NCBI GenBank assembly: GCA_029861845.1
Contig: JAOTYM010000006.1
Coordinates: 2,710 to 66,709, forward strand
Source of the DNA: Gammaproteobacteria bacterium
Lineage (GTDB): Bacteria > Pseudomonadota > Gammaproteobacteria > Acidiferrobacterales > SPGG2
Reading direction: 5' to 3'
DNA: 64,000 nucleotides
Below the pieces are notes generated by a model that saw nothing but the letters and a program-made list of their open reading frames with translations, ran no database searches and was not told where the DNA came from. Made by a program: the position numbers and the translations under genes. Below, in pieces: positions 1-16,986 of this stretch (the first letter of the stretch is position 1; each line of letters begins with the position of its first letter).

Positions 1-941
1 GACTGCATAAAACCCGAAAGTCCCTGGGCAAAAAAGGCATGGCTCACTTCGGGCGCGCCGGGATTCTCCACTTTTGAACCAAACCCCAGCCCGCCGATTC
101 TCTTCAACGCGCCCGCAATCCCGTTTGGGTTGCGCGTAAACTGAACCGCCGAGGCGTCTGCCAGGTATTCTCGTTGTCGGCTCACCGAGGCCTTGATCAG
201 GCCGCCAAAAAACGTGCCGGCAAAACCAATGACCATCAGTCCAATAGCCAGCGCCAATATACTGCCCCCGCCTTTATCACTAGTGCGCCGGTGTCTCGAA
301 TACGAAGCGGAATACAAAATATAGTAGCCAATAATTCCGATAATCAGGATGCCATTCAGCACGCCCATTAAGCGAATGTTGAGGCGCATATCGCCATTGA
401 ATATATGGCTGAACTCATGGGCAATCACGCCTTGTAGTTGTTCGCGACTCAAATGATCGATAGTCCCCCGGGTAACCCCAATGACGGCATCGCGCGGCGA
501 GAATCCAGCCGCAAAGGCGTTAATGCCCTGTTCGTCCGCGAGCAGGTAAACAGGCGGCACGGGTGTGCCGGAAGCGATGGCCATTTCCTCCACTACGTTT
601 AACAGTTTGCGCTGATTCAGGTCTTCCGTATTTTGTGGGATCAATTGCCCACCCAGCGACTCCGCAACAACCTTGCCACCAGCGGATAAGGCCATGATCT
701 TGTAGAGACTGCCCACCAGTACCACGACACCGACACCCACACCGACAGCAATAAATGTCTGCCAATCCATTTGCTCGATTAATGTCTCGCCATTACGTAA
801 CTGCTCACTATTGATATAACCGAACACCACCATGACCAATAAATTAGTCATGATGATTAAGGCGACTACGGCAAAAATAAATAGGACGACAAGCCGAGCC
901 GTGTTTCTATGCACACGGTCTTGCGATTCAAAGAAATTCAT
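1..941 (-). CDS. M48-family zinc metalloprotease (HtpX-like); C-terminus lies beyond the left window edge
   Basis: Absent from the ORF track because it runs off the edge. My own minus-strand translation from the ATG at 941 reads MNFFESQDRVHRNTARLVVLFIFAVVALIIMTNLLVMVVFGY... It has N-terminal hydrophobic helices and the HExxH motif 'VIAHEFSHIF'. It lies directly downstream of a LemA gene, a common pairing for this family. Confidence 0.8.
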   Translation of the reverse strand, partial: MNFFESQDRVHRNTARLVVLFIFAVVALIIMTNLLVMVVFGYINSEQLRNGETLIEQMDWQTFIAVGVGVGVVVLVGSLYKIMALSAGGKVVAESLGGQLIPQNTEDLNQRKLLNVVEEMAIASGTPVPPVYLLADEQGINAFAAGFSPRDAVIGVTRGTIDHLSREQLQGVIAHEFSHIFNGDMRLNIRLMGVLNGILIIGIIGYYILYSASYSRHRRTSDKGGGSILALAIGLMVIGFAGTFFGGLIKASVSRQREYLADASAVQFTRNPNGIAGALKRIGGLGFGSKVENPGAPEVSHAFFAQGLSGFMQ

Positions 942-970
942 TGTTCAAACGTGAGGATACACAGCACTAA

Positions 971-1567
971 TTAGAACGAGACCTTTGGCACGGCCTGTAT
1001 GGCCGCACTGTCTTCAAATTCCAGCAAGGCCGCATCCTCCGCATGGCCAAATCGTGCTGCAAAGAATGCAGGCGGAAAAGTCTGTTTATAAATATTGTAG
1101 GCCATCACCTGGTCATTATAGGCCTGCCGGGCGAAGGAGACTTTATTTTCCGTGGTAGTCAGCTGTTCACTTAACTGCATCATGTTCTGACTGGCCTTGA
1201 GATCTGGATAGGCCTCCATCACCATATTGAAATTCATCAAGGCGCCAGACAGTTTACCCTCGGCACCAATCAGATCTTTCATCGCCTCGGCATTGCCCGG
1301 ATCAGCAGCCGCTTTGGATAGCATATCTGCTGCCGCATTACGCGCTGCGACCACCGATTCCAGGGTTTCCCGTTCGTGCTTGATATAACCCTTTGCGGTC
1401 TCAACAAGATTAGGAATCAGATCGTAACGTCGTTTTAATTGTACTTCTATCTGCGCAAAGGCGTTTTTGTAACGATTCTTTAGTGTGACTAATTTATTAA
1501 AAATTCCGAACACATAAAAAACGATCAGCGCAATAGCAACCAATATGACTATTAATGTGATATCCAT
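971..1567 (-). CDS. LemA family protein
   Basis: Track ORF 971..1624. I prefer the internal Met at 1567 (MDITLIVILVAIALIVFYVF...), which gives an N-terminal TM anchor. The 'KRRYDLIPNLVETAKGY' region matches the LemA signature as I recall it. Confidence 0.85.
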   Translation of the reverse strand: MDITLIVILVAIALIVFYVFGIFNKLVTLKNRYKNAFAQIEVQLKRRYDLIPNLVETAKGYIKHERETLESVVAARNAAADMLSKAAADPGNAEAMKDLIGAEGKLSGALMNFNMVMEAYPDLKASQNMMQLSEQLTTTENKVSFARQAYNDQVMAYNIYKQTFPPAFFAARFGHAEDAALLEFEDSAAIQAVPKVSF

Positions 1568-1608
1568 GTTTCTCACCCTTATTGTATTTACTGGGAAGGC
1601 AGCGGGGA

Positions 1609-1776
1609 TCAGCCCTGGATCCACGCACCGAGTCCCATGCCGCCGTGACCGCCCATCATGCGCATCTGGCCGCCGGACGTCTTGCCCTGTGCCTTGTGGG
1701 CATGAAGCGGTGCGACCAGCGTCATGCCGGTTAGTGTTATGGCGGCCCGGCGCGTGCGAGATATTGAGTCTTTCAT
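1609..1776 (-). CDS. Small secreted Met/Gly-rich peptide with a twin-arginine-like signal (55 aa)
   Basis: Internal Met of ORF 1609..1887: MKDSISRTRRAAITLTGMTLVAPLHAHKAQGKTSGGQMRMMGGHGGMGLGAWIQG. A strong SD (AAGGAGGAAACG) precedes the ATG. The signal-peptide DNA is about 83% identical (67/81 by manual alignment) to that of the gene at 8584..8973. Confidence 0.55.
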   Translation of the reverse strand: MKDSISRTRRAAITLTGMTLVAPLHAHKAQGKTSGGQMRMMGGHGGMGLGAWIQG

Positions 1777-1914
1777 CGTTTCCTCCTTTGAAGGGGAATG
1801 CCAGTACGCGTCCATCTTACGCAACTCCTCGGACGAGAGCGTGCTTTCTTGGACTTTCGGTTCAAATGTGCTTCCCATCATCCTCACGCGGAATCGTGTA
1901 TTGACGGCACGCTG

Positions 1915-3060
1915 TCAACGCGGTGTTCTGAGTCTCGGTCGTCTACCTACCTTGACCTCCACCGTCAAACGCTGAGTCTCGCGCATGAGCGTGATTGATG
2001 TAGTTTGACCGGGTGGCACCTTGGATATGCTATTGAGCAACCCGGAAGTGTCCGTCAACTCCTGGCCGTTTACAGTTAAGAGTACGTCTCCCGGATGGAT
2101 GCCGGCTTTGTCAGCCGGGCCGCCGCGCAGCACGCCGGCAATCAGTACGCCCTTGTCGACGTCAAGCCTCAGGGCAGCCGCTAATTCTGGGTTGAGGTCC
2201 TGCACATCGACCCCAATCCAACCGCGTACGACCGCGCCCTGCTCGATGATCTGCTGCATGACTTGTTTGGCGAGGTTGGCCGGTATGGCGAAGCCGATCC
2301 CCTGCGAGCCGCCGGTCTTGGAGAAGATTGCGGTGTTGATGCCGACGAGGTTACCGGCGGCGTCGATTAGTGCCCCGCCCGAGTTGCCAGGGTTAATCGC
2401 CGCGTCAGTTTGAATAAAGTTCTCGAACGTATTGATCCCCAGACCGCTGCGACCGGTTGCACTGACGATGCCCATCGTGACGGTTTGTCCCACCCCGAAG
2501 GGATTGCCGATGGCGAGCACAACGTCACCGATCTCTATTCGATCGGAGTCGGCGAACGTGATCGCGGAAATATCCTGGGCGTCCGCTTTCAACACCGCGA
2601 GATCTGTTTCCGGATCCGTCCCAACCACCTGCGCCGGTGCCGTGCGTCCGCCTGAGAGGACAACGGCGATCTGGTCAGCCGACTCGACCACGTGGTTATT
2701 GGTCAGGATATAGCCTTCGTTGCTGATGATCACGCCAGAGCCCAAGCTCGTGGCGCGCTCGGGCTCGGCCTCGAATTCATCGCCGAAGAATCGGCGAAAC
2801 AATGGGTCATCCATAAACGACGGTCGCTGCGCACGGACGTCCCGGCTCGTATAGATATTCACCACCGCGGGCATGGCCTTTTCGACCGCGCTCCTGAAGG
2901 TCGAGGCCAAAGTCGTCCCGATTGCCGGCGCCGATGCTTCCTTGACCGTGATCACTCGACCTCTCGCCGGTATCCAGTCCGGCCTGAAAAGCGTGATCAG
3001 CAAAAAAATAGCCAAAGCGACGGTGACCGTCTGAGCCAAAGTCAGCCATAACCTACGCAC
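1915..3060 (-). CDS. S1C serine endoprotease, DegS/AlgW-like (TM anchor, protease domain, one PDZ)
   Basis: 381 aa with a GTG start. Catalytic triad contexts are 'TNNHVV', 'DLAVLK' and 'GNSGGAL'. The C-terminal PDZ-like segment reads 'GVLIAGVLRGGPADKAGIHPGDVLLTVNGQEL'. Confidence 0.9.
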   Translation of the reverse strand: MRRLWLTLAQTVTVALAIFLLITLFRPDWIPARGRVITVKEASAPAIGTTLASTFRSAVEKAMPAVVNIYTSRDVRAQRPSFMDDPLFRRFFGDEFEAEPERATSLGSGVIISNEGYILTNNHVVESADQIAVVLSGGRTAPAQVVGTDPETDLAVLKADAQDISAITFADSDRIEIGDVVLAIGNPFGVGQTVTMGIVSATGRSGLGINTFENFIQTDAAINPGNSGGALIDAAGNLVGINTAIFSKTGGSQGIGFAIPANLAKQVMQQIIEQGAVVRGWIGVDVQDLNPELAAALRLDVDKGVLIAGVLRGGPADKAGIHPGDVLLTVNGQELTDTSGLLNSISKVPPGQTTSITLMRETQRLTVEVKVGRRPRLRTPR

Positions 3061-3099
3061 AAGTGTTACCCCTTTTCATTTCCCAAAAGCGAAAATACC

Positions 3100-3756
3100 T
3101 TAACCAGGTTGATGTTGATTGACCACCCCCAAGCGCGGAAAGAACGCCGGTGTGTTGGCGGCGTAGCGGGCATATTCTTCGCCGAACTCGGCCATGACCT
3201 CTTGCTCTTCACGCCTTGCCAGGCGCACGTACATGTAAACCAGTACGGGAAACATCACCAGCGTCACGAGTGTCGGCCACTGCAACAGGAAGCCAAGCAT
3301 GATGAGGACAAATCCACCGTACTGGGGATGACGTAGCCGTGCGTAAGGGCCCGTCATCGCCAGGGTATGTGTACGCTGCGCTACGTAGAGCACCTTCCAG
3401 GAAGCAGCGAGCAGGATAAACCCGCCGAATATGGAAATGTTGCTCAGCAAGTGAAACGGACCGAAGTGCGGATTGGCACGCCAACCGAACACGATCTCCA
3501 ATAGATGGCCGGCATCATGCGACAAGAAGTCTACACCGGGGACACGGCTGGTAAGCCAACCCGAAAGTGTGTAGATGGTGAGCGGGAAGCCGTACATTTC
3601 GGTAAACAGCGCCAAGACAAACGCCGAAAAGGCGCCAAACGAGCGCCAGTCGCGGCGTGTGTGCGGCTTCGTGAAGCTGAACGCGAAGATGATGAAGATC
3701 AGCGAGTTAATTATGACCAACGGCCATAAGCCGTAGGCGGGTGCGGATTCACTCAC
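3100..3756 (-). CDS. Isoprenylcysteine carboxyl methyltransferase (ICMT/PEMT)-family membrane methyltransferase
   Basis: 218 aa, polytopic. The C-terminal 'RLRHPQYGGFVL...EEQEVMAEFGEEYARY' matches the RHPxY..G / E..L...FG..Y signature of this family. The GTG start overlaps the upstream stop (GTGA at 3753-3756). Confidence 0.75.
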   Translation of the reverse strand: MSESAPAYGLWPLVIINSLIFIIFAFSFTKPHTRRDWRSFGAFSAFVLALFTEMYGFPLTIYTLSGWLTSRVPGVDFLSHDAGHLLEIVFGWRANPHFGPFHLLSNISIFGGFILLAASWKVLYVAQRTHTLAMTGPYARLRHPQYGGFVLIMLGFLLQWPTLVTLVMFPVLVYMYVRLARREEQEVMAEFGEEYARYAANTPAFFPRLGVVNQHQPG

Positions 3757-3983
3757 GACTTGTCTCCATCTGAACCCTCACCGTCGCCGCCGTGACCGTG
3801 GCCACGATGCATGAATAAGTGCATGAATACACACCCGAGCAGTAATAAGTAGGGCAACGCGCCCAAGAGATGAGCCCGGTGCTCGGTCCAGAGGAAGAAG
3901 GCGGCGATAGCGACGAAGATCAGCAGGATGATGTTCGTCTTCGACAGCCGTCTGGTATTCGTATGCGATCGATGTTCTGTCAT
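3753..3983 (-). CDS. DUF2933-like small membrane protein with a His/Gly-rich tail
   Basis: Internal Met at 3983 (MTEHRSHTNTRRLSKTNIILLIFVAIAAFFLWTEHRAHLLG...HRGHGHGGDGEGSDGDKS), preceded by GGTGAGG. It has two TM helices. The family name is from memory. Confidence 0.65.
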   Translation of the reverse strand: MTEHRSHTNTRRLSKTNIILLIFVAIAAFFLWTEHRAHLLGALPYLLLLGCVFMHLFMHRGHGHGGDGEGSDGDKS

Positions 3984-4085
3984 GCTCGAAACCTCACCGT
4001 TATCTGACGGATCGCGCGTTGTGGTGGTTCGCACCCGCATCATGTCCCAACCACGTTGTTCTCGCGCGCTCTTATGGCTCTCACT

Positions 4086-4388
4086 TTATCTTTCCTTTGC
4101 TGGGCTCGCCCTAGTCGTCCACTGCCGCTGGGTACCCCTGCCAGCAAACACATTGTAGATCGGTACCCATATAAGCGCGACGTACCAGCCGTAGGCGTAG
4201 CTCTCCACAAGGCCGAGGAAAAAGCTCTGCCAAGTAAGCCACTCGAATCCCGGCAGTAGCTTGCGCCACGTCTCAAACATTGCGTACTCCGGAAACAGTA
4301 GATCAAAGCCGACACATAGGGTAAAGGTGATAGCCAAGAACAGGCTCGTCGCATGGCCAACCGCCACGAGCGAAAGGCCCTGTTTCAT
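4086..4388 (-). CDS. Small 3-TM membrane protein (resembles DUF5676 from memory)
   Basis: Met at 4388 (MKQGLSLVAVGHATSLFLAITFTLCVGFDLLF...YGWYVALIWVPIYNVF). Its ATG overlaps the YHS gene stop (ATGA at 4385-4388). The long Arg-rich upstream extension in the track ORF is out-of-frame overlap with the YHS gene. Confidence 0.55.
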   Translation of the reverse strand: MKQGLSLVAVGHATSLFLAITFTLCVGFDLLFPEYAMFETWRKLLPGFEWLTWQSFFLGLVESYAYGWYVALIWVPIYNVFAGRGTQRQWTTRASPAKER

Positions 4389-4660
4389 GATGCGCCTCCT
4401 TGCTTGCGCAGGAACTTTTCTGGTTCGGCCTCGAACTTGTCGAGACAGTTGCGCGAACAGAAACGGTAGAGCTCGCCGCCATGCATCTTGCCGTAACCCT
4501 GCTCGGGGTCGACATTCATGCCGCATACGGGATCGACGTGCTTCGCGCTGGCATCGCCGTGGCCGCCATGTCCGCCGTGGACCATGTGTGCGCCGCAGCC
4601 AAAACGCATCATCAGGTAAAAGGCCCCGGCAAAAAGCAGTAGCGATACTAAACCTTCCAT
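4385..4660 (-). CDS. YHS/TRASH-domain metal-binding protein with TM anchor and His-rich segment
   Basis: MEGLVSLLLFAGAFYLMMRFGCGAHMVHGGHGGHGDASAKHVDPVCGMNVDP...YRFCSRNCLDKF. The 'DPVCGM..V' ... 'FCS..C..KF' pattern is the YHS/TRASH pattern. It is the first gene after MerR-type promoter B. Confidence 0.7.
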   Translation of the reverse strand: MEGLVSLLLFAGAFYLMMRFGCGAHMVHGGHGGHGDASAKHVDPVCGMNVDPEQGYGKMHGGELYRFCSRNCLDKFEAEPEKFLRKQGGAS

Positions 4661-4783
4661 AACAGCTCTCCGACGCCCTCTCGGACGCAGTAACAATTAT
4701 CGTCACGCGCTCGCTTCAACTCAAAAGCGGGGGCTACTCTTCCAGATCTGCCCCGTCTGTTGCACAGCACGGGCGCATGTTCC

Positions 4784-4815
4784 ATGTTACAACCTGTGCG
4801 TCACTAACAAGTCAA
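4784..4815 (-). promoter_or_regulatory. MerR-type promoter/operator B (upstream of the YHS operon)
   Basis: Minus strand reads TTGACT-TGTTAGTGACGCACAGGTTG-TAACAT. It has a -35, a 20-nt spacer containing the dyad ACTTGT-N9-ACAGGT (4792..4812), and a -10. The geometry is the same as sites A, C and D. Confidence 0.7.
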
Positions 4816-4882
4816 CACTCGATCGACGTGACCGTTGATATGGATCAAGAAGAGACGACTCAGTGGGACAACAGAGGAGTAC

Positions 4883-7345
4883 TTACAGCGGCACCCCGCG
4901 CAGCCGCAAGGCATTGGTAATCACCGATACTGAACTAAGACTCATCGCCGCCGCTGCGATCATGGGGGAAAGCAATAACCCGAAAAACGGGTAGAGCACG
5001 CCGGCGGCGACCGGGACGCCGAGCGAGTTGTAAATGAATGCGAAGAACAAGTTCTGCCGAATATTGCGCATGGTCGCACGACTCAAGCGCCGTGCGCGCA
5101 CGATGCCACGTAGATCGCCCTTGACGAGCGTGACGCCGGCGCTTTCCATCGCGACGTCGGTACCGGTGCCCATCGCGATGCCCACATGCGACTGGGCCAG
5201 TGCCGGCGCATCATTGATGCCATCACCGGCCATGGCGACCGTGCGTCCCTCAGATTGAAGTTTCTTCACGATCGCGGCTTTCTGGTCCGGCAGCACTTCG
5301 GCCTCGACGCGATCGATACCAAGCCTGGACGCGACCGCCTCGGCGGTCGTGCGGCTGTCACCAGTCAGCATCACGACCTGGACACCTTCTTTATGCAGGT
5401 CCCGGATGGCCTCCGGTGTGGAATCCTTGATCGGATCGGCCACACCAATCAGCCCGGCGGCCTGGCCGTCGATGGCTACAAACATGACTGTCTGCCCTTC
5501 CCCACGGCCGGCCTCCGCGATTTTTGGCAAATCGGCCGGATCGATGCGCAGGCTTTCCAGCAATTTGACATTACCCAGCGCCACGCGTCGCCCCTCGACC
5601 TTGCCGGTCACACCCTTGCCGGTAACGGACTCAAAATTGTCGGTCGGTGACAGGGTAACCTCCCTGTCCTGTGCGCCGCGCACGATCGCTTCGGCCAGCG
5701 GGTGTTCGCTGCCGCGTTCCAGGCTGGCGCCCAGGCCCAGAATGTCATGTTCTTGAAAGCCGTTCACGGTCACGATCGACACCAGCGAGGGTTTCCCCTC
5801 GGTCAGGGTGCCGGTCTTGTCCACGACCAGCGTATCTACCTTGCGCAGGATTTCCAGTGCCTCGGCATTCTTGATCAATACCCCCATCATGGCGCCCTTG
5901 CCGGTGCCGACCATGATCGACATGGGGGTGGCTAGCCCCAGCGCGCAGGGACAGGCAATAATCAGTACCGCCACGGCGTTGATCACCGCATAGGCCAAGG
6001 CTGGTGCCGGTCCCCAGTTCCACCAGACGAAGAAGGTGATGATGGCAATCACGACCACAGCCGGTACAAAGTAACTGGCTACCACGTCCACCAGCTTCTG
6101 GATCGGTGCACGCGAGCGCTGTGCCTCGGCCACCATCTGCACGATCTGTGACAGCAGCGTATCTGCACCGACCCGTTCAGCGCGCATCAGCAGGCTGCCG
6201 GTACCATTGACGGTCGCGCCGATCAGCCGTTCACCCGCAGTTTTTTCGACGGGAATGGGCTCACCAGTCACCATGGATTCGTCGACCGAACTACTGCCGT
6301 CGAGTACTGCGCCATCCACAGGGACCTTTTCCCCCGGCCGCACCCGCAGGGTATCCCCCGGTTTGACCTGTTCCAGGGGGATATCTTCTTCGGTGCCATT
6401 ATCCCGGACGATACGCGCGGTGTTGGGTGCCAACCCCAACAACATTTTGATGGCGGCATTGGTGCGGCTGCGCGCGCGCAGCTCCAAAACCTGACCAAGC
6501 AGCACCAGTGCGGTGATGACGGCAGCCGCCTCAAAGTACACAGGTATAACTCCCATCTCGTTCTGCACCGACGCTGGAAAAATACCAGGGAACGTGGTTC
6601 CGATCACACTATAGGTCCAGGCAATACCAACCCCTATTCCAATCAGGGTGAACATATTAAGGTGGCGCGAGACCACCGATTGCCAACCGCGCACGAAAAA
6701 CGGCCACCCCCCCCATAAGACGACCGGCGTCGCCAACAGCAATTCGAACCACTGGCGCGAGCGTGGATGAATGATCTCTGCGACGGTCTCGGGCCAGAAC
6801 TCGGCCACCATAGCGCTGAAGAACACCGGGATGGCGAGGATGGCACTGACCCAGAAGCGCTGCGACATATCATCGAGTTCACTGGTGTCCTCTTCGACCT
6901 CTACCGTGCGCGGCTCCAGGGCCATGCCGCATTTCGGACACGCCCCCGGTTTGTCGCTCACCACCTCGGGGTGCATAGGGCATGTGTATTCCGTCTTGGT
7001 CGCGGTCACCGGAACGCCCATCGGCTCCAACGCCATGCCGCACTTGGGACAGCTGCCCGGCCCCTGTTGCTCCACCTCGGGATCCATGGGGCAGGTATAC
7101 ATCCCTCCCTGTGCTGATGAGCCGCTGTCGGCCGGTGCCTCGAGATCCGGGGTCCCTAGATAGTTATCCGGCGCCGCGCGAAATTTGTGCAGGCAGTGTT
7201 GGCTACAGAATCGGTACGTTGTAGCGGCATGAGAGTGTTGGTGCGGAGAATCCTTGGATACATCCATACCGCACACGAGATCCTTTTCGATCGCCTCGTC
7301 GACATGCTGGCCCGATACTTTCTTCAACTTATGCTTGGGTTTCAT
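4883..7345 (-). CDS. copA: Cu(I)/Ag(I)-translocating P1B-1-type ATPase
   Basis: Motifs present: 'DKTGTLT', '[10 protein letters not shown]' (CPC), 'FIYNSLGVP' (YN), '[12 protein letters not shown]' (MxxSS), 'GDGINDAP'. The N-terminus has a YHS motif plus two 'YTCPMxPEV..[13 protein letters not shown]' repeats. The track ORF starts at TTG 7405, but that lies 2 nt from the predicted -10 (7407..7412), so I prefer ATG 7345 (MKPKHKLKK...). Confidence 0.93.
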
Positions 7346-7406
7346 CGCATTGTGCTCTTTGGTCGCCTGATGCGGCGTTTGATCATTCGGGTGACTCTGC
7401 GTCAAC

Positions 7407-7438
7407 AGTATAAAACCTGTACCCTGCTAACAGGTCAA
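7407..7438 (-). promoter_or_regulatory. MerR-type promoter/operator A (upstream of copA)
   Basis: Minus strand reads TTGACC-TGTTAGCAGGGTACAGGTTT-TATACT. The dyad ACCTGT-N9-ACAGGT at 7415..7435 is perfect. The 20-nt spacer (19 if the -10 is read as TTATAC) is typical of MerR/CueR/ZntR-activated promoters. Confidence 0.8.
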
Positions 7439-7666
7439 ACTATTGCCCTTACCAGCCGCAGCAATACTAGTTATTCACATCTATTCTACGACGCTTTCTG
7501 TGTGCTTTGCATCGCGTCGGCCTCCGTCGAGAGCCCCAGTGAGTGGCCAAAATAGGTCGGCGGATGCCATCGGGCTGCAGCTTCAAAAGATCGCCTAACG
7601 CGCACAACGGAGAACGGGGCCAAACGCGTCTTTCAACTCTCCTCTAGCCGCCTCCGACTGGGTGAC

Positions 7667-8020
7667 TTAGTGCGGCCGGTCTATGCTGCGTAGTAGCTGC
7701 ACCCTCAGTGTTAGCCCATCGACGCTCAGGATTTTTACCCGGCCGCCTTTGCGCAACCTATCAGTGGACTCAGCGTTCCAGATTTCGCCGTGGACCCGCA
7801 CACGAGCGATACGTCCTCGCGCCTCTCTGACCTCGCCCAAACTTCGCAGCATCTCTTCGGAACCCGTCTGCACGGGACGGCGCATGGCCCGCACCGTGTA
7901 GAAATAAACCACAACAGAAAGCACGATGATGACCGTGTACACCGGCACCGCTATTGACATCGGCCACAACCAGAACACTGGGAGCCCCAATACCGGCATC
8001 ATCAGAATGAGATGGCACAT
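7667..8020 (-). CDS. NfeD-family membrane protein (C-terminal OB-fold type)
   Basis: 117 aa with two N-terminal TM helices. The tail 'GRIARVRVHGEIWNAES...GGRVKILSVDGLTLRVQ' resembles the NfeD C-terminal domain. Confidence 0.7.
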   Translation of the reverse strand: MCHLILMMPVLGLPVFWLWPMSIAVPVYTVIIVLSVVVYFYTVRAMRRPVQTGSEEMLRSLGEVREARGRIARVRVHGEIWNAESTDRLRKGGRVKILSVDGLTLRVQLLRSIDRPH

Positions 8021-8064
8021 GATTACACCGACGTATCACCGGGCGAAAATATCCGGTGAGAAAC

Positions 8065-8304
8065 TCAGTCAGACAGTAGTTTTTTCCGCTCCTCGAATTC
8101 TTCTTTATCGATCTCGCCGCGGGCGAAGCGCTTGCTAAGAATATCCAGTGGCGTTTTGCCAGCCGACGGCACGCCGGCTCCACCGGCTGACCCACTCCCA
8201 ATCCAACGAACAAGGAGCACAATCACCAAGATAATGCCACCCCAGAACAGGACCATCATCAATGAACCAAAGAGCATGTGGCCCCAACCCCAATCGTATG
8301 CCAA
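8065..8304 (-). CDS. SHOCT-domain membrane protein
   Basis: 79 aa with a TM helix (LFGSLMMVLFWGGIILVIVLLV). The C-terminal 'LDILSKRFARGEIDKEEFEERKKLL' is the SHOCT motif. The start is TTG at 8304, with an alternative ATG 27 nt downstream. Confidence 0.7.
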   Translation of the reverse strand: MAYDWGWGHMLFGSLMMVLFWGGIILVIVLLVRWIGSGSAGGAGVPSAGKTPLDILSKRFARGEIDKEEFEERKKLLSD

Positions 8305-8583
8305 CCAGGACGCTCCGCGTAACCTTGTGCTTGCACTTGGAACGACGCGAGAGCGAAGATCACCATTATCAGTGCGGACCTAATCCAGCTTGTCATTTCG
8401 ATCTCCTTCAAGATTTCATCTATCGGACAATCGCAGCACCCCTTAGTCCCTATGCTGACCCGGCACGACTTAGCAAACGCTACCAGCGGCAAAGGGTCAA
8501 GGGGTTCAACAAGACTAGTTGTCCTTCGCCGGAAGGCCAGCCACGGTCTAATTATGCCCACTCGAAGGATGCCAGGCGATGCC

Positions 8584-8973
8584 TTACTGCTTCATCATTT
8601 CGTCCATGCGTTTACGCATCTGCTCCATCTGATCCTGCGTGTCGGCGTCCATCATCATGCCCGACATCTTGTCCATCATAGCGCCCATTTCCTGCATGCG
8701 CTCGGCCATCTGTTTTTGCATGTCGGGGCTCATGCCTCCCTGCATCATCCGCTCGGACATCTTTTCCATCTGACCGGCCATGTCATGCATCATGCCGGAA
8801 GACTGCTGGGCGCCGGGGCCCATACCGCCTTTGCCACCCATCATCCCTGAACCCATCTGGCCGCCGGACCCCATGCCTTGTTCCTTTCCCGTGTGTGCAT
8901 AAAGCGGCGCGGCGAGCGCCATGCCGATCACTGCTATGGCAGCCCGGCGCGTGCGAGACATTGACTGTTTCAT
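8584..8973 (-). CDS. Methionine-rich secreted protein with Tat-like signal (putative periplasmic Cu(I)/Ag(I) binder)
   Basis: MKQSMSRTRRAAIAVIGMALAAPLYAHTGKEQ..., then a mature part with 28 Met in about 103 residues (my count) in M-x-x-M/MM motifs. A strong SD (GAAGGAGCAAAAG) precedes the ATG. MerR-type promoter C lies upstream. Confidence 0.75.
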   Translation of the reverse strand: MKQSMSRTRRAAIAVIGMALAAPLYAHTGKEQGMGSGGQMGSGMMGGKGGMGPGAQQSSGMMHDMAGQMEKMSERMMQGGMSPDMQKQMAERMQEMGAMMDKMSGMMMDADTQDQMEQMRKRMDEMMKQ

Positions 8974-9124
8974 CTTTTGCTCCTTCGATGGGGATTATCC
9001 CCAGTTCGGTTACATTAACGTTTCTATGCAAAACGCGCCCGTTCGGCCGCAACGCTGCGCGCTGAGATCCTTTCGCATGGTCGCAGCCGGGATGTAGTGG
9101 CGTTTTATGTGTGCAACATCATGA

Positions 9125-9156
9125 ATGCTACAACCTGTGCGCAACTATCAGGTCAA
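9125..9156 (-). promoter_or_regulatory. MerR-type promoter/operator C (upstream of the Met-rich / SHOCT / NfeD genes)
   Basis: Minus strand reads TTGACC-TGATAGTTGCGCACAGGTTG-TAGCAT. The dyad is at 9133..9153 with one mismatch. The geometry is identical to sites A, B and D. Confidence 0.7.
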
Positions 9157-9462
9157 GCCCCGTGCTGCCCCTTCACTTGACTAAAATCAATAAGGCGCAG
9201 ATTGAGTGCAATTCCCGAAAGAAGTGGATGGTAGGCGTTACCCGAACCAGTTGATTGTCAGAACATTCGTTATGTGTGTTACTTAGACATGACGATGGCT
9301 AGTGCTGGGGTTTGTTTCGGGCCAGAAGGCAAGCTAGCACGATCAGTCGCAATTCCTTCTACACTATAGCCGACCTATGGTTTTGTTGATCTATCTCAAC
9401 GCAAAGTTGGGGTGTATATGTTCTGTTGTGAGGTTACCGAACTTTGCGCTACGGAGGCTATT

Positions 9463-9675
9463 ATGAACGGCCGACAGTTTCTTGGTCTAGTTATTCTGCT
9501 GCTAAGCGTGGGTCTTTTCAGTGGATGCCAGAAGGTCAACGAACCATGGGATACGACTGGTTATTTCGAAGCGGAACGAAGCCGGACACCGGAGCAACAA
9601 AAAGCTCTAAGGCACCGCTTAGCGTCCGCCGTAGAACTCAGCCAGGAGCAGCCTTGGTTGCACGCGCAGCATTGA
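9463..9675 (+). CDS. Small putative lipoprotein (70 aa)
   Basis: Internal Met of ORF 9412..9675: MNGRQFLGLVILLLSVGLFSGCQKV... has a signal peptide and a lipobox-like 'FSGC'. A strong SD (ACGGAGGCTATT) precedes the ATG. Confidence 0.5.
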   Translation: MNGRQFLGLVILLLSVGLFSGCQKVNEPWDTTGYFEAERSRTPEQQKALRHRLASAVELSQEQPWLHAQH

Positions 9676-9957
9676 TTGACGCTATAGGTCCTTATTACTC
9701 CAGACGCAGCGGCCGCAAACGGGCTAGTTGACTCACAAAACCGCATCGCGGGCGCGATTTGTTGCGCGTCATTTTCTACTCGCTCAACCGATAACGGGCC
9801 AGAGCGATCCCGTGGAGTGTCCCTTAATGATACAGACCAAAGCGGTAAGGAAGCAGTAAGCTATATTGCAGATCTGAAGTTCCGAAAACAATAAGATTGT
9901 AGCTTTATAGAACCCCCGTAATAAGGTTCGCCCACCATTGATCTAACTCGTTGGCAT

Positions 9958-10392
9958 TTATTGCATACATCTCATATGTTGAGGCCCTTGACAAGCAATA
10001 ATCCTTGCGCTCCATAGGCTCTTTATATACGCAACGATATCGTAAACCTCTTTTTCAGAAATAACTTCCTTGAAGGCAGGCATGCGCTTCGTTCTGCGCA
10101 GACCTTCGAAAATCATGTTTGCTAGCTGTTCATCAGTATGGTGCCAGGCATGCGATGTTTCATTTAAAGGCATGGCCGTAAAGTATCCTGGCTTACGTAT
10201 ACTCCACGGAATCGGCGTTTCCCCTACCCCATCTTTCTGATGACAAACTTGACAATGCTTCTCATAAAGCCCTTTACCAAGCACGACGGCACCGGGGTCC
10301 GGCGTTTTCCCCGTTTCAGCACCAGCGATTCCACTGAAAATAATGAGCGCTAAAAAGTTAACGACCAAAATATTTCTTCGTATTGTAATCAT
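9958..10392 (-). CDS. Monoheme c-type cytochrome (periplasmic)
   Basis: Signal peptide and a single 'CQVCH' heme motif. It shares 'PLNETSHAWHHTD' and 'DIVAYIKSLW' with the cytochrome paralogues at 17070, 17599 and 22390. Confidence 0.8.
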   Translation of the reverse strand: MITIRRNILVVNFLALIIFSGIAGAETGKTPDPGAVVLGKGLYEKHCQVCHQKDGVGETPIPWSIRKPGYFTAMPLNETSHAWHHTDEQLANMIFEGLRRTKRMPAFKEVISEKEVYDIVAYIKSLWSARIIACQGPQHMRCMQ

Positions 10393-10450
10393 CTCAACAT
10401 CCCGAAATATCTTAACATCGCAAGTATAGCGCTCAAGCGGTATCAGCGTT

Positions 10451-10861
10451 TCACTCGACCCCAGCCGCGCGTTGTTTCTGGCGCACGTAGGCTATGATAT
10501 GACCCGCATCCTCTGGCGTGAGCCTGTCGATGGGCGTCATGTTTCCGAAGTTCCAATGGTGCTGCCGCACACCGTGTCTGACCGCGAGGTGAAAAGACAG
10601 ATCAGCATGGTGGCCAGGCCGGTAAATCTTGTGTACCAGTGGTGGTCCTTCGCGTGTTCCCCGGACGCCCTCGCCATGACAGCGGGCGCAGTTGGCCTGA
10701 AATAGATCCCCGCCTCGTTTCGCGTCGGCGACGAAGTTGGGACTCGGCAGACGGAGATTGGCGCGCATCTGTTCCGGTTCAGGCCGTTCGCAGCTGGCCA
10801 AGATCGGTAACGTAATGAAGGCCATAGCAAGCCATGGCGATATGTTCTTTCTTGCGTTCAC
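10451..10861 (-). CDS. Monoheme c-type cytochrome, probable lipoprotein
   Basis: Heme motif 'CARCHG'. The track ORF extends to 10921. I prefer GTG 10861, which gives (M)NARKNISPWLAMAFITLPILASC, a lipoprotein-type signal, and avoids overlap with the Rieske reading frame. Confidence 0.75.
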   Translation of the reverse strand: MNARKNISPWLAMAFITLPILASCERPEPEQMRANLRLPSPNFVADAKRGGDLFQANCARCHGEGVRGTREGPPLVHKIYRPGHHADLSFHLAVRHGVRQHHWNFGNMTPIDRLTPEDAGHIIAYVRQKQRAAGVE

Positions 10862-10910
10862 CTTGTATCTTTGTGGCCTGAGATGGGTTTGCGGTGGCGT
10901 TGGACTGTGC

Positions 10911-11502
10911 TCAGATCTCATCGGCGCCGATTCCTATCACTGTGTCTTTCATGTATCGATGAGTAGGCACGACTAAATTGGTTGGTGCCGGGACATTCTT
11001 GAATACGCGCCCCGCCAAGTCAAACTTAGAGCCATGACACGGGCAGAAATAGCCGCCGGGCCAATCCCTGATCGACACCCGCGCTTGCGCCGGAAGCAAG
11101 TTTGGCCAGAGGCACGCACCCGAGATGCGTACAGATGCCGACGACCACGAGCACTTCCGGCCGGATCGATCGGTAAAGGTTCTTGGCATACGACGGCTGC
11201 TGACTTTCCACCTCCGAGCTCGGGTCGACCAGCAGTGGCGTGTTGCGCTCGAGCTGTTCGAGCATCGCCGGTGTGCGCCGCAAGATCCATACCGGTATGC
11301 CCCGCCATTCAACGGTAAGCATCTGCGCCGCTTCGAGCTTGCTGATATCGACATTAACGGAACCACCCGCGGCCAATGCCCGCGCACTGGGTTTCATACT
11401 TAAGATAAAGGGCGTCGAGCTAAGGGCAGCGCCGATGCCACCCAGAACGGTGGTGATCGTCAGCAGCCACCGTTTTTTTGCATCGACAGGGCCACTAGCC
11501 AC
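10911..11502 (-). pseudogene. petA: Rieske [2Fe-2S] protein, PetA-like, interrupted by a +1/-1 frameshift near 11090..11105
   Basis: ORF 11026..11502 carries the PetA-like N-terminus through cluster box I, 'VVGICTHLGCVP'. Box II 'GGYFCPCHGSKFDLAGRVFKNVPAPTNLVVP' is in a different frame (ORF 10911..11387). Removing one nucleotide near 11097 joins them with normal box spacing. Confidence 0.8.
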
Positions 11503-11525
11503 GATACCACCTACTAGTTGCGTTA

Positions 11526-12119
11526 TCAGGCCTTGAGATCTTTCGACGCCGGCCGCCTGGGTCGGCCCAGTTGTGGTGCGATGCCACAGAATCCCTGGGG
11601 CTCTACCCCCAGTGCGGCGTTGAACTTGCTGGAAAGATTCTGGAACGCGATGACACCGGTAAGCTCTATGATGGCATCATCATCGAAGTGCCGGCGAAGC
11701 TGTTCAAAGTGCTTCGCGGTTGGTTGACCGTCTGAATAGGTGATCATCTCGGTGTAGGCCAATGCAATTTTTTCGCGCTCGCTAAACAGCGGGCTTGCCT
11801 CGAAATTGGCAAGCTCTGCCAACTTGGCCGGATCAACACCCCGCTTAAGCACGGTCGCAGAATTGATATCGACGCAGAACGGACACCAGTTGATCTGGGA
11901 CACCCGTATGGTGACCAGCGATCGCAGCGGCGGTTCGATCGGCGAAGAGCGGCGATCCAAAGCTCCATAAAGCAGCGCTAGGCTGATGAATACTTTGGGC
12001 GTACGGCCCCAGAGACGAGCAGGCTCGAGCACCGCACCATAACGACGTCTCTGGTTCCAGAAGAACAGGCGCACATACCACGGGAAATGGTGCTTTGGTG
12101 GCGTAGTGATAGCAGCCAT
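11526..12119 (-). CDS. Carboxymuconolactone decarboxylase / AhpD-like family protein
   Basis: Internal Met at 12119 (MAAITTPPKHHFPWYVRLFF...) avoids overlap with the upstream gene. The 'INWCPFCVDIN' CxxC core is typical of AhpD-like proteins. Confidence 0.7.
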   Translation of the reverse strand: MAAITTPPKHHFPWYVRLFFWNQRRRYGAVLEPARLWGRTPKVFISLALLYGALDRRSSPIEPPLRSLVTIRVSQINWCPFCVDINSATVLKRGVDPAKLAELANFEASPLFSEREKIALAYTEMITYSDGQPTAKHFEQLRRHFDDDAIIELTGVIAFQNLSSKFNAALGVEPQGFCGIAPQLGRPRRPASKDLKA

Positions 12120-12141
12120 CACTGGTGTCGCGCGACGCCGA

Positions 12142-13206
12142 CTAACGACCCGCCACCGCCATCTGGTGCCCCTCACCACGGACGGGAATCTTGCCCACTA
12201 CCGCTAAGCGTTTCTGGTCCACTACCCAGATCAGCGGCTCCTTGCGGCTCGAAACGTACACCTTACCCGTACCCGGGATTGCGGCAACATGATAAGACGC
12301 CGGGCTGAGATCGAGACTGCGAGTCCGACCGCTAACAAGATCAATCTCGATTAGCTTGTTGTCCTTCTTGACCGCAACGAGCAGCTTCTTGCCGTCATCG
12401 GACAAGTCAACGCCATGGGGATCGTTGCCGACGCTATACGTCTTTACCACCTTGCCCTGGTCGCGCGAGATCACCGAAACGGTACCATCACCGATATTGT
12501 TTACGTAAATCGTAAGCTCGTCCGCCGATAGCACCATATGTTCGGGCGCCGGTCCCGCCAAGATATTGCGGGTCACGATCCAGTGATCCGTATCAATCTC
12601 ACTGATCGTATTGTTGCCAGCGTTGCTGACATAGATGCGTTTGCCGTCTTTCGTGACTACCGCGTAGTTGGGCACTGGGCCGGTTGGCACTACCTTGGCG
12701 ACTTTGTAATTCGAAAGATCGATCGCGCTGATCCCGCCGGCCGTAGTATGTGTCGAGATCGCGTAACGTCCATCCGGTGTAACCAGATTGTGATGAACGG
12801 CTCCTTTCACGTCGACACGGCGAACTACGCGTCTGTCTTGCGTCTCAACAATAGCAACATGGCTCATCCCCACGCCCGATTGCGAAGCGGCCGCAGTCGG
12901 CATGTTGTGATGCAGGCTGTGCTCCTCCTCGGACATGCCAGCTGGCTTCGGTGGCAGCGCGGCTTGATCCGGGCTCACCTCCCGATTGCTGCCCGCGACC
13001 ACGTACTTGCCATCGGGCGTCGCGGCGAGGCCGTGCGGATTGACGATATCGCCGACCGTATCTATGACCTTGTCATCTGCCGCATCCACGATGACGATTT
13101 CGTTTGCCGTACCTAAGGGGATATATACTGTGGGTGCGGCTGACGTGACCGAGGCCATACCGACGGTAGCAGCGCTAACTAGAAGAATACCTACCAGCTT
13201 GTTCAA
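12142..13206 (-). CDS. Secreted YVTN-type seven-bladed beta-propeller protein
   Basis: Signal peptide (MNKLVGILLVSAATVGMASVTSA). Seven repeats of the pattern 'V.VID....KV...I.VG..P.G...S.DGK..YV'. A Met/His-rich insertion follows blade 1. Confidence 0.8.
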   Translation of the reverse strand: MNKLVGILLVSAATVGMASVTSAAPTVYIPLGTANEIVIVDAADDKVIDTVGDIVNPHGLAATPDGKYVVAGSNREVSPDQAALPPKPAGMSEEEHSLHHNMPTAAASQSGVGMSHVAIVETQDRRVVRRVDVKGAVHHNLVTPDGRYAISTHTTAGGISAIDLSNYKVAKVVPTGPVPNYAVVTKDGKRIYVSNAGNNTISEIDTDHWIVTRNILAGPAPEHMVLSADELTIYVNNIGDGTVSVISRDQGKVVKTYSVGNDPHGVDLSDDGKKLLVAVKKDNKLIEIDLVSGRTRSLDLSPASYHVAAIPGTGKVYVSSRKEPLIWVVDQKRLAVVGKIPVRGEGHQMAVAGR

Positions 13207-13317
13207 GTTCCTCTCCTTTCTTAAGGTGCGTTCTCTTCAAGGACTGCGTTCTTTAGTCTTAGCGGACGATAAGGTTATACCCCGCTTCGGTCTGGTCTAC
13301 GGATCACTAACCGCCCA

Positions 13318-13983
13318 TCAGCCGCCCTGGCCCATGCCCGGAGACATCATTCCGTGTCCGCCCCTGCCATGGCCGCGCTTCAACTGTTTGAGCTCTTGGC
13401 GCTGTTCCTTGGTTAGCACCGCGTCAACACGATTGTGGGTATCAATCTTGCTCTCAATCATCTGCCGTCTGAGATTAAAGATATTCCCATACACCGCACC
13501 GATTCTTTTCGCATCTGGTTTATCGGCGGCGAAGAGCTCACGCAGCTTGCTGGATTCGTCCATGATCTTGCCCATGGTGTCCCAGTTCGTCCTGCGTAGC
13601 TGATCCTGAAGCTTGTGCATGCTGGCACGCTGTTCTTTTGTAAGGTCAAGCATTTGTATGCGGCCCATGCCCATGCCGCCCATCATTCCAGGACTATCCA
13701 TCATCCCCATCATGCCTGGTCCCATACCCATCATGCCCATGTGACCCATGCCACCCATATGGCCCGCCATCCCGGATTCGCCCATCATGCCCTTGTGACC
13801 CATGCCACCCATATGGCCCGCCATCCCGGATTCGCCCATCATGCCCATGTGGCCCATGCCGTAGCCGGGGGTACCACCTCGCATCATCGGACCGCCGCCA
13901 TGGGCTAGCGCGACTGACGCCCCAATGCCAACGACAGCCGCGATCAATACACCCATCATCAAACCAGTTACAGTTCTATTCAT
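13318..13983 (-). CDS. Spy/CpxP/ZraP-family periplasmic protein with a Met/His/Gly-rich N-terminal extension
   Basis: Signal peptide, then 'GMGHMGMMGESGMAGHMGGMGH...' repeats. Two LTxxQ motifs follow ('LDLTKEQRASM', 'AVLTKEQRQEL'), characteristic of the family. A strong SD (GGAAGGAGAT) is present. Confidence 0.8.
   Translation of the reverse strand: MNRTVTGLMMGVLIAAVVGIGASVALAHGGGPMMRGGTPGYGMGHMGMMGESGMAGHMGGMGHKGMMGESGMAGHMGGMGHMGMMGMGPGMMGMMDSPGMMGGMGMGRIQMLDLTKEQRASMHKLQDQLRRTNWDTMGKIMDESSKLRELFAADKPDAKRIGAVYGNIFNLRRQMIESKIDTHNRVDAVLTKEQRQELKQLKRGHGRGGHGMMSPGMGQGG
13741..13848. repeat. Tandem 54-bp direct duplication inside the Spy/CpxP-like gene
   Basis: 13741..13794 and 13795..13848 are identical except for one base at the unit end (tt vs at). 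They encode the duplicated 'GMMGESGMAGHMGGMGH(K/M)' block. Confidence 0.9.
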
Positions 13984-14620: not shown

Positions 14621-14652
14621 AGTCTAAGACCTGCGTGTAGCTTACAGGTCAA
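14621..14652 (-). promoter_or_regulatory. MerR-type promoter/operator D (its -35 overlaps the merR-family stop codon)
   Basis: Minus strand reads TTGACC-TGTAAGCTACACGCAGGTCT-TAGACT. The dyad is at 14629..14649 with one mismatch. The -35 hexamer (14647..14652) contains the TGA stop (14649..14651) of the regulator gene. Confidence 0.7.
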
Positions 14653-15071
14653 GCGTCATAGCGACGGATGCCTGTTGACTCGATGAGGTGACATATCGAT
14701 TCCCTATCGGGCACGCGGTCGGGCATCTTATCCCACTGCCTTAAGGCGTCTTCCATACGGTTCTGCAACTGCAACAGTTCCTCCAGCTTCTGCCGGTTCT
14801 CCTCGACGTGCCGCTGCAAGATATCCCTGACTCTTCGACACGGGGACTTGCCCTGGGCGCTGGTGTCGAGAATCTGTGCGATCTCCTCCAGCGTACAGCC
14901 GAGGCTCTGCGCCTGACGGATGAAACTAAGCCGCGATATGTCAGAACGTGAAAATAGCTTATAGCCATTGTCCGGATGGCGCGCCGGGCTGAGTAACCCG
15001 ATCCGGCTGTAATAGCGGACCACATGCGGTGCCACTCGCCCTTGCCTTGAAAGTTCACTTACCGTCATCAT
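14649..15071 (-). CDS. MerR-family metal-responsive transcriptional regulator
   Basis: MMTVSELSRQGRVAPHVVRYYSRIGLLSPARHPDNGYKLFS... is the MerR N-terminal wHTH, followed by a coiled-coil helix. GGAGG lies 7 nt upstream of ATG 15071. It is the only MerR-family gene in the window. Confidence 0.88.
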   Translation of the reverse strand: MMTVSELSRQGRVAPHVVRYYSRIGLLSPARHPDNGYKLFSRSDISRLSFIRQAQSLGCTLEEIAQILDTSAQGKSPCRRVRDILQRHVEENRQKLEELLQLQNRMEDALRQWDKMPDRVPDRESICHLIESTGIRRYDA

Positions 15072-15206
15072 TTTGCTGCCTCCTAAAAGATATAGTTGCG
15101 CTGTGCGCCCACGTCGCACGAACTCGCTAACAAGAGAACGGCCCGGGCGCGTGCCATGGCTTCGCCTAGCGACTCGCCGCTAGGTTTCCGCCAAAGTTGA
15201 ACGGCC

Positions 15207-15647
15207 TCAGATAAGAAGCTGCTTGAAACGCAGATACAGCGGGAGCGATGAGGTTGGAACGTGATAGGCTTGCGGCCACTCCCGAATTGGTTCGGCAATC
15301 TGCTGGTCCCAGACTAACGCGGCGGCCACGAGGCTGTCCGGTTGCGGGGAGCGATACTTGAGAACAACCGGCGCCGCTTTCATAAGATCGTGACGCATAC
15401 CGGTCCAGTAGCAACAATAAGACAACCCGTCTTCTGATGCTGCCTCGCCGACGATTTCTCGAGCGTAATCGGCGGACGTCAAACCAACCCCCACCTGCGG
15501 CTGAGCCAATCCGGCGGCAAACAAGTCGCGGCAGGGCTGCAGCGTCACCAGCAACAACAGCGAGAGCGAACCAACTAATAGCCAGGATGTATATCGGCGC
15601 CGACACGTTGGTTGCCAAGCTAATACTTTTCGGCGGCTGCTATTCAT
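15207..15647 (-). CDS. Hypothetical protein with N-terminal TM/signal segment
   Basis: 146 aa with a hydrophobic segment (WLLVGSLSLLLLVTL). I recognise no family. I chose it over the overlapping alternative frame 15166..15618 because of the TM segment and tight spacing to the flanking genes. Weak call. Confidence 0.4.
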   Translation of the reverse strand: MNSSRRKVLAWQPTCRRRYTSWLLVGSLSLLLLVTLQPCRDLFAAGLAQPQVGVGLTSADYAREIVGEAASEDGLSYCCYWTGMRHDLMKAAPVVLKYRSPQPDSLVAAALVWDQQIAEPIREWPQAYHVPTSSLPLYLRFKQLLI

Positions 15648-15662
15648 CGAGCGTAACGAGCT

Positions 15663-16052
15663 TTAATTGAGGCTATCACGTACACGTTCTAGACGCTTGC
15701 GCACTTCCATACCTAATTCGGCGATCTCCTCGCGATCGACCAAGCCTAACACCGCTGCAGGATCCATAAATGCGACGGTTATCTTACCGTCTTCCTCTTC
15801 CCTGACCACAACATTGCAAGGCAATAGCAATCCGATATCAGGATCGGCGGTCAGGGCCTTATGCGCAAGCGACGGATTGCAGGCTCCGAGGATTCGGTAT
15901 GGCTGTCCTTCGATATCCAGTTTTTCTTTCATGGTCTTCTGCACATCGATATCGGTGAGTACACCGAAGCCCTCATCTTTCAGTGCCTCGGTCACTCGTA
16001 TAACAGCTTTATCGAAGCTTTCCGTCAGTTGAATATTAAATCCATACATCAT
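15663..16052 (-). CDS. DUF302 domain protein
   Basis: 129 aa. '[17 protein letters not shown]...YRILGACNP' and 'LLPCNVVV' match the DUF302 pattern as I recall it. Confidence 0.8.
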
Positions 16053-16217
16053 TCTCTCCCAGCGGGACTAAGCGCGTTCAGTTTGTTTTGACCTTGCAAA
16101 ATTTATATCTATCTCGCCAGCTTAGACATTGATGTAGGTCAAGGTTCCGTGTTTCGAATCAAGCCCTCACCAAATCAACGTAGGGGCTTACAAGAATCCA
16201 CGCTTCGAAATATCTAC

Positions 16218-16985: not shown

Positions 16986-16986
16986 A

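Follow-up and report, generated by a model that had tools for sequence, protein, structure and literature searches.

The locus examined here poses a simple question: does a run of eight closely packed genes beside a copper-type ATPase make up one dedicated system, or is it a local assembly of parts with separate histories? The genes occupy one end of a 64,000-nt stretch of DNA (hereafter the window; contig JAOTYM010000006.1, positions 2,710 to 66,709) from an uncultured gammaproteobacterium, and they follow a promoter that we call promoter B. In order of transcription they encode a YHS protein, the small membrane proteins DUF5676 and DUF2933, a membrane methyltransferase of the ICMT type, an HtrA serine protease, a 55-aa open reading frame (ORF), LemA and an M48 metalloprotease. 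The initial annotation of this DNA suggested that together they form a metal-induced module for envelope protein quality control and modification that accompanies the efflux pump. We find that the eight-gene unit is a local assembly of pairs that are each conserved in their own right, together with a recruited protease and a gene remnant, and that the combination is not a new or conserved system. In our judgement, the region is probably an accessory transcription unit, variable in content and built as a mosaic of cassettes, within a copper/silver resistance island on the chromosome.

A mosaic of separately conserved pairs

All eight genes and promoter B lie on the minus strand where the initial annotation had placed them, and Pfam confirmed the family it had named for every gene save the 55-aa ORF (Table 1). 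Its description of a tightly packed, translationally coupled run is borne out to the nucleotide. The ATGA at 4388-4385 joins the stop codon of the YHS gene to the start codon of DUF5676, the GTGA at 3756-3753 joins the stop of DUF2933 to the start of the ICMT gene, and the remaining intergenic spacers measure 39-139 bp. No terminator was found in these spacers, whose folding is no better than that of shuffled sequence (z -1.15 to +1.45). The shared strand, spacers of at most 139 bp, two overlaps and absence of terminators together suggest that promoter B to the M48 gene is a single transcription unit.

Conservation was examined around the ICMT gene in 80 genome loci, each from another species, 78 of which were informative for neighbours. 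In 65 of the 78, the gene immediately upstream of ICMT is DUF2933. Of 55 loci, 40 have the DUF2933 stop codon overlapping the start of ICMT, by 4 nt in 33 of these, and a P1B-ATPase gene is found within 8 kb of ICMT in 61 of the 78 (59 of these share its strand and 42 are no more than 1.5 kb away). DUF2933 and ICMT are a strongly conserved, translationally coupled pair, and the triad with the ATPase is present in the window, where the ATPase gene is followed by DUF2933 and then by the overlapping ICMT gene. Other companions were recorded across the 80 loci as YHS (32), DUF5676 (11), SHOCT (11), LemA (3) and M48 (1).

The YHS and DUF5676 genes are a second translationally coupled pair. Orthologues of the YHS protein at 64-69% identity are paired with DUF5676 in three loci (L034, L036 and L073), the ATGA overlap recurs in L034, and the two genes are mostly adjacent among the ICMT loci. 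The YHS protein has an N-terminal transmembrane helix, a CGAHMVHGGHGGHG stretch (GGHGGHG) and a C-x19-C-x3-C motif. DUF5676 had been annotated as a protein with three transmembrane segments, which its sequence allows, whereas Pfam describes a family with two; the sequence fits either number. Our literature search found nothing on DUF5676.

Conserved synteny, proposed with the initial annotation as a check, is found for DUF2933-ICMT with the ATPase, for YHS-DUF5676 and for LemA-M48, but neither for the HtrA gene nor for the order of the eight genes. There is no HtrA gene in any of the 80 ICMT loci and no other gene of the unit in the loci of the 80 closest HtrA relatives, metagenomic sequences at most 60% identical to the query. 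The protease keeps its catalytic triad and its TNNHV, DLAVL and GNSGG motifs intact, and its N-terminal transmembrane segment and one PDZ domain give it a DegS/AlgW-like architecture. Among NCBIfam models it passes degP_htrA_DO (429 against a cut-off of 416), whereas it scores 320 against 423 for the DegS equivalog.

The 55-aa ORF, previously taken for a secreted peptide, is a truncated paralogue of a 129-aa Met-rich gene at 8584-8973. It is 81-85% identical in nucleotides to the first third of that gene, retains nothing beyond the signal peptide and a Gly/Met stretch, and lacks the QQMSGMMHDM...QKQMAERM...MRKQMD core of the 122-133-aa family. It is a gene stump left at a recombination junction. 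Full-length Met-rich genes stand directly after ICMT in L012, L035 and L047. At the junction itself, homology to the Met-rich paralogue stops near 1630, homology to the LemA-M48 block starts at 1580-1590, and the guanine-plus-cytosine (GC) content falls from about 0.59 to 0.44-0.53.

LemA and M48 form an autonomous 2.6-kb block whose homology runs from 13-23 bp before the LemA ATG to about 60 nt before the M48 stop, and LemA lies directly upstream of M48 wherever upstream DNA is visible. This cassette is 79-83% identical in nucleotides in five other contexts, while the ATPase and ICMT genes show 70-72% to the same relatives. The two genes had been annotated as one with those upstream; their base composition and evolutionary history set them apart. 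LemA-M48 occurs in three copper islands (L010, L167 and L168), near cusRS and a multicopper oxidase gene in L169, at IS240-flanked sites (L166, L171 and L173) and at housekeeping loci (L170, L172 and L173). Genes for IS240-family transposases lie beside it at 6493-7191 in L166, 6108-6650 in L171 and 10005-10703 in L173, a neighbourhood that hints that LemA-M48 moves as a unit.

The M48 protein, cut by the window edge, is 660 aa long in an overlapping ENA contig (L081), carries a HEFSH motif and has a C-terminal half without an assigned family. It falls below the cut-off of all HtpX equivalogs (best 183 against 355), and HtpX proteins measure about 290 aa. Relatives of this long form are abundant at 77-88% identity. 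The idea that it is a common plasmid-borne metal gene was dropped, as there was one full-length plasmid match only, at 34% identity.

The backbone of islands L167 and L168 is the same as that of the window, in the order LTXXQ...SHOCT-NfeD...CMD-MerR-ATPase-cytochrome c-LemA-M48...Redoxin-DsbD. L010 and L167 are collinear at 84-92% identity and differ by a 3.2-kb indel between the ATPase gene and cytochrome c-LemA-M48, which holds a 200-aa ORF, DUF2933, two ICMT genes and a gene for a secreted protein of about 200 aa. This indel indicates that the slot 3' of the ATPase gene is a hot spot for cassettes and that LemA-M48 is the older neighbour. The locus illustrates clearly how islands of this kind come about: cassettes enter the slot behind the ATPase gene, and each can bring a copy of the MerR operator.

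Table 1. Position, strand and basis of assignment of the features discussed (window coordinates)
Feature	Position	Strand	Basis
M48 (HtpX-like) metalloprotease, first 313 codons, gene cut by window edge	1..941	-	Pfam Peptidase_M48 86 bits (cut-off 20)
LemA family protein, 198 aa	971..1567	-	Pfam LemA 174 bits
Recombination junction, variable block / LemA-M48 cassette	1580..1630		Homology ends and GC drop
55-aa ORF, 5' remnant of a Met-rich periplasmic protein gene	1609..1776	-	Nucleotide match to 8584-8973; no family match
Membrane-anchored HtrA/Do serine protease, 381 aa, one PDZ	1915..3060	-	Pfam Trypsin_2 and PDZ
ICMT/PEMT-superfamily membrane methyltransferase, 218 aa, GTG start	3100..3756	-	Pfam ICMT and PEMT
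DUF2933 protein with two transmembrane segments, 76 aa	3753..3983	-	Pfam DUF2933 83.6 bits, E 1e-23
DUF5676 small membrane protein, 100 aa	4086..4388	-	Pfam DUF5676 36.2 bits, E 1.2e-8
YHS/TRASH metal-binding protein, 91 aa	4385..4660	-	Pfam YHS 49.7 bits, E 3.7e-13; L081 gene call agrees
Promoter B, MerR-type promoter/operator	4784..4815	-	One of four repeat-family copies
Cu(I)/Ag(I)-type P1B-ATPase, 820 aa	4883..7345	-	NCBIfam ATPase-IB1_Cu, Pfam, motifs
MerR-family heavy-metal-type regulator	14649..15071	-	Pfam MerR_1 and MerR-DNA-bind

The DUF2933-ICMT pair and its copper context

The DUF2933 protein carries TEHRAH in the loop between its two helices and C-x2-MH-x2-MH-x-GHGHGG at the end of the second helix and in the tail (HRGHGHGG). 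Across 56 orthologues the motifs TEHRAH and C-P-x-M-H-x-F-x-H-G-G-H-G are conserved and the termini are variable. Of the 2,025 cluster representatives of the family, the top 150 are without exception small proteins that stand alone. A role of DUF2933 as the substrate of carboxyl methylation was considered and is unlikely, because the C-termini vary and do not end in Cys.

The methyltransferase belongs to the ICMT/PEMT superfamily by both Pfam models (ICMT 32.1 against a cut-off of 24, PEMT 29.6 against 25). A profile of its family matches PDB 4a2n, the Ma-ICMT structure, with an E-value of 3.6e-9 over residues 116-209 only, the S-adenosylmethionine (SAM)-binding core, with the motif residues aligned. 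An AlphaFold model has a pLDDT of 74.6 overall and of 84-94 over most of the C-terminal half. Foldseek ranks 5v7p, 4a2n and 5vg9 as its top three matches (probability 0.96-1.0, TM-scores 0.43-0.50), followed by sterol reductases, so that the predicted model has a helical, multi-spanning ICMT-like membrane fold at modest TM-scores. Like Ma-ICMT and the eukaryotic ICMT (5v7p), the enzyme has the SAM core GxY..RHPxY...EE...FG..Y..Y within a helical membrane fold; in contrast to them, its N-terminal 115 residues cannot be aligned and carry a His/acid loop specific to the family. The invariant residues there are H80, D81, H84, E87, N95, P96, H97 and H102, all outside the core common to canonical ICMTs, and by the positive-inside rule the loop would face the periplasm.

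The gene family is large. More than 8,000 ICMT homologues were found, the best 120 of which are 75-90% identical, and those with names come from Nitrospirae and Alpha-, Beta- and Gammaproteobacteria. Plasmids carry the gene too: 220 have a copy with 60-80% identity, 70 of these plasmids being from Acinetobacter, and on annotated plasmids the DUF2933, ICMT and ATPase genes overlap. The pair is among the commonest companions of copper P1B-ATPases; it turned up in Beta-, Gamma- and Alphaproteobacteria, in Nitrospirota and in cyanobacteria. Two ICMT-like paralogues, in tandem or close together and 61-75% identical to the query, occur in L010 (6807-8276) and also in L024, L026 and L027. A contig assigned to Candidatus Nealsonbacteria (L075) and a Streptomycetaceae metagenome-assembled genome (L032) hold ICMT-like genes 70-78% identical to proteobacterial ones, and these are either very recent transfers or wrongly binned contigs.

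The link between ICMT and metals is already on record. A 'core cluster' of merR, copA, cupredoxin, DUF2933 and ICMT genes was described from Alteromonas and other marine Gammaproteobacteria, on plasmids as well as genomic islands and across many marine genera, without a function (Cusick et al. 2021, PMC8478169). That cluster and the window share MerR-family control, a Cu-type P1B-ATPase and DUF2933 directly followed by ICMT, and the Alteromonas plasmid ICMT is about 62% identical to ours. They differ in that the unit in the window has no cupredoxin gene, a separate copy of the MerR promoter serves its pair, its regulator gene lies 10 kb away rather than beside copA, and the pair is preceded by YHS-DUF5676 and followed by HtrA, the gene stump and LemA-M48.

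Members of the ICMT family have been noted in other metal clusters as well. CzcN is annotated as an ICMT-family protein (PMC7563307), and a 'czcN homolog' follows cusCBAF in Pseudomonas putida (PMC3056050). CzcN and NccN of Cupriavidus metallidurans resemble the enzyme described here as membrane proteins of the ICMT superfamily inside a metal-efflux cluster. Orthology was rejected, as the czcN annotated on a Cupriavidus plasmid matches just the C-terminal 42% of the query, at 38% identity. CzcN goes with resistance-nodulation-division (RND) systems for Zn, Cd and Co rather than with a Cu P1B-ATPase, and no DUF2933 partner has been described for it. The statement that an ICMT-type enzyme is uncharacterised in bacterial metal stress holds, with CzcN still listed as of 'unknown function' in a 2025 review (PMC12193353). 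The function of the DUF2933-ICMT pair is in our view the most valuable question that this locus raises, and the 4-nt overlap, the metal-binding motifs and the His-rich loop are handles on it.

A shared operator and a proposed copper response

Promoter B, first noticed in the initial annotation, is real in so far as it is part of a family of four. A repeat search of the window returned four 32-nt copies, at 4784-4815, 7407-7438, 9125-9156 and 14621-14652, with 17 invariant positions in their alignment, and the family pattern TTGACYTGWWAG-N7-CAGGT occurs four times in the window, where chance would give 0.04. The consensus consists of TTGACC, the palindrome ACCTGT-N9-ACAGGT and TAnnnT with a spacer of about 20 bp. 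In promoter B the -35 element is TTGACT, the imperfect palindrome ACTTGT-N9-ACAGGT and the -10 element TAACAT, again with a spacer of about 20 bp. A palindromic operator between the -35 and -10 elements, a spacer of the over-long class (19-20 bp) and a merR-family gene nearby are all present. The layout is typical of MerR-family activators, and activation by metal is predicted from it.

The MerR-family regulator encoded 10 kb from promoter B probably activates all four boxes. Its cysteines are in unusual positions (GCTLEEI, SPCRR, SICH). One box precedes genes for a Spy/ZraP/CpxP-like LTXXQ protein, a beta-propeller protein, a CMD protein and cytochromes c, another a Met-rich protein, SHOCT and NfeD, the third (7407-7438) the P1B-ATPase, and the fourth the accessory unit under study. 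The ATPase belongs to the copper subfamily (TIGR01511, 603.5 against a cut-off of 397) and has an N-terminal YHS domain and two HMBD domains. Its translation holds the CPC, YN and MxxSS motifs (the last read as MSLSSVSV) of P1B-1 ATPases.

We propose a model in which the activator probably switches on these four promoters through their common palindromic operator. The unit behind promoter B would have been built by insertion of cassettes into the slot just 3' of the ATPase gene, namely the coupled pairs YHS-DUF5676 and DUF2933-ICMT, a recruited HtrA protease gene and the Met-rich gene stump, with the inserted block fused 13-23 bp upstream of a LemA-M48 cassette that was already there. As it has no promoter region of its own, this cassette would need read-through from upstream. 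DUF2933 would bind Cu(I) at the membrane via its EHxxH and CPxMHxxMH motifs and work one-to-one with the SAM-dependent methyltransferase, the two together supporting the ATPase. The acceptor may be a nucleophile residing in the membrane, either a lipid or a small thiol, and not a prenylated protein, and the HtrA and LemA-M48 proteases would clear copper-damaged envelope or membrane proteins.

It is tempting to speculate further that DUF2933-ICMT is a copper-gated membrane methylation system, an idea that we put forward as unlikely. The His, Cys and Met motifs of DUF2933 and the His/acid loop of the enzyme would bind copper and so switch on SAM-dependent methylation of a lipid head-group or small thiol. 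With this modification the inner membrane would bind less copper or suffer less damage from it, which would complement the P1B-ATPase, and here the system would be joined to proteases as a copper envelope-repair unit. If true, copper-gated methylation would be a widespread, uncharacterised mechanism of resistance.

In E. coli, copper induces the Cpx regulon, including DegP, HtpX, Spy and CpxP (PMC6737893), and one island would here do what that regulon does. The likeness lies in an HtrA-family protease, an M48/HtpX-like protease and a Spy/CpxP-like LTXXQ protein. In contrast to Cpx, the island genes stand behind MerR-type promoters rather than under a two-component system, the M48 protein is 660 aa long and is paired with LemA, and copper induction of the island is predicted only. 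A copper-linked envelope quality-control role of the proteases is plausible by this analogy, given also the Spy-like LTXXQ gene behind the same promoter type and LemA-M48 after the same ATPase type in related islands. The envelope quality-control idea of the initial annotation stands to that extent, but not as a conserved module. From this locus it seems that a metal sensor can take direct control of envelope proteases and of a Spy-like chaperone.

Several results weigh against this proposal. The reciprocal counts for HtrA (0/80 and 0/80) make the protease a one-off. LemA-M48 is in housekeeping or IS240-flanked contexts in five of the nine places examined and so need not be metal-related, and our literature search found nothing linking LemA or M48 with copper. 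Fusions of DUF2933 with ICMT or the ATPase, which would have supported a physical complex, were absent from the top 150 of the 2,025 family representatives. As for the acceptor, the score for a true ICMT/Ste14 isoprenylcysteine enzyme is far below cut-off (NCBIfam isopcys_mtase 47.4 against 160), and so are the scores for MddA (17.2 against 270) and LmtA (39.4 against 325), these models matching the shared C-terminal core only. CaaX prenylation is a eukaryotic pathway. The regulator is below every NCBIfam equivalog cut-off tried (MerR, ZntR, CadR and CueR; for MerR 80 against 151, for CueR 66 against 147), and the exact operator pattern has no match among 164 other loci, which makes the operator specific to this element. 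Induction and read-through, finally, are both read from the DNA sequence alone.

How do other explanations fare? The eight genes could be a single conserved system, dedicated to quality control and modification of envelope proteins, that evolved together with the copper pump. The common strand, tight spacing, two overlaps and lack of terminators would fit, as would protease types that match the copper-induced Cpx members DegP and HtpX and the recurrence of LemA-M48 behind related ATPases. However, the full arrangement was found only in contig L081, which is identical to the window, HtrA is missing from all 80 ICMT loci and metal genes from all 80 HtrA loci, and M48 is present in one of the 80 ICMT loci. 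The blocks also differ in divergence and GC, and one member is a gene fragment. The synteny test largely refutes a co-evolved system, which we regard as very improbable. Alternatively, the metal-regulated unit may stop after the methyltransferase, with the protease, stump and LemA-M48 as unrelated housekeeping genes that have weak promoters of their own and no role in metal stress. The closest HtrA relatives are indeed in non-metal contexts, LemA-M48 sits among housekeeping genes in L170, L172 and L173, and the composition breaks at about 1600. Yet there are only 13-23 bp of cassette sequence before LemA and 39 bp before the protease gene, which leaves little room for promoters, and no terminator follows ICMT. 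LemA-M48 comes after the ATPase gene in three diverged relatives of the island (L010, L167 and L168), and metal and redox genes (a 53-aa YHS, DoxX, a thioredoxin-like gene and DsbD) continue past M48. We hold such a short unit to be unlikely.

The DUF2933-ICMT pair, for its part, may be a sensing or regulatory device instead of an effector of resistance. For instance, a periplasmic His-rich site could gate a methylation that signals to, or tunes, the ATPase, in parallel with czcN at the regulatory end of the czc cluster. The invariant His/acid cluster of the enzyme (H80, D81, H84, E87, H97 and H102) outside the canonical catalytic core and the conserved EHxxH loop of DUF2933 would suit a sensor, and CzcN is encoded beside the metal-controlled promoter czcNp (PMC12193353). 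Against this, the weak and partial match to CzcN makes it no orthologue, no regulator domain or partner is conserved beside the pair, and the pair mostly takes the place of a structural gene, within the ATPase operon or immediately behind it. A sensing role seems to us improbable. We continue to favour a cassette-built accessory unit of the copper island, with a pair that would act in resistance.

The island and its chromosomal setting

Contig L081 is 100% identical to window positions 1-13756 (13,756 nt) and extends 6.9 kb further. Past the left end of the window, beyond M48, its positions 14978-20657 hold the 53-aa YHS gene, several small unassigned ORFs, DoxX, a thioredoxin/AhpC-like gene, DsbD_TM and Redoxin. 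These metal and redox genes indicate that the island extends at least 7 kb further.

Large ORFs further along the window encode a ChpA-like kinase, a PilJ-type receptor, transketolase, GAPDH, PGK and pyruvate kinase. They show that the window is chromosomal and rule out that its remainder is an integrative conjugative element. PGK is about 75% identical to proteins of Chromatiales, Acidiferrobacteraceae and Nitrosococcus, and puts the host among uncultured Gammaproteobacteria. Plasmid DNA held no close relatives, the best identity being about 70-78% over the ATPase gene, and neither tRNA genes nor Rfam matches were found in the window.

Within the island, the LTXXQ gene (13318-13983) contains at 13727-13888 three head-to-tail copies of a 54-nt repeat, 96-98% identical, which encode a repeated Gly/His/Met-rich stretch on the minus strand. 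There are two separate tandem pairs of cytochrome c genes, at 9958-10921 and 17070-18156, the second with a 144-nt repeat at 76% identity (17081-17224 and 17607-17750). Further along the window, at 34807-42909, a 1951-aa ChpA-like hybrid kinase with three Hpt stretches, CheW and receiver domains adjoins the PilJ-type chemoreceptor, forming with it a chemosensory cluster of the Chp/Pil type that has no connection with the copper unit.

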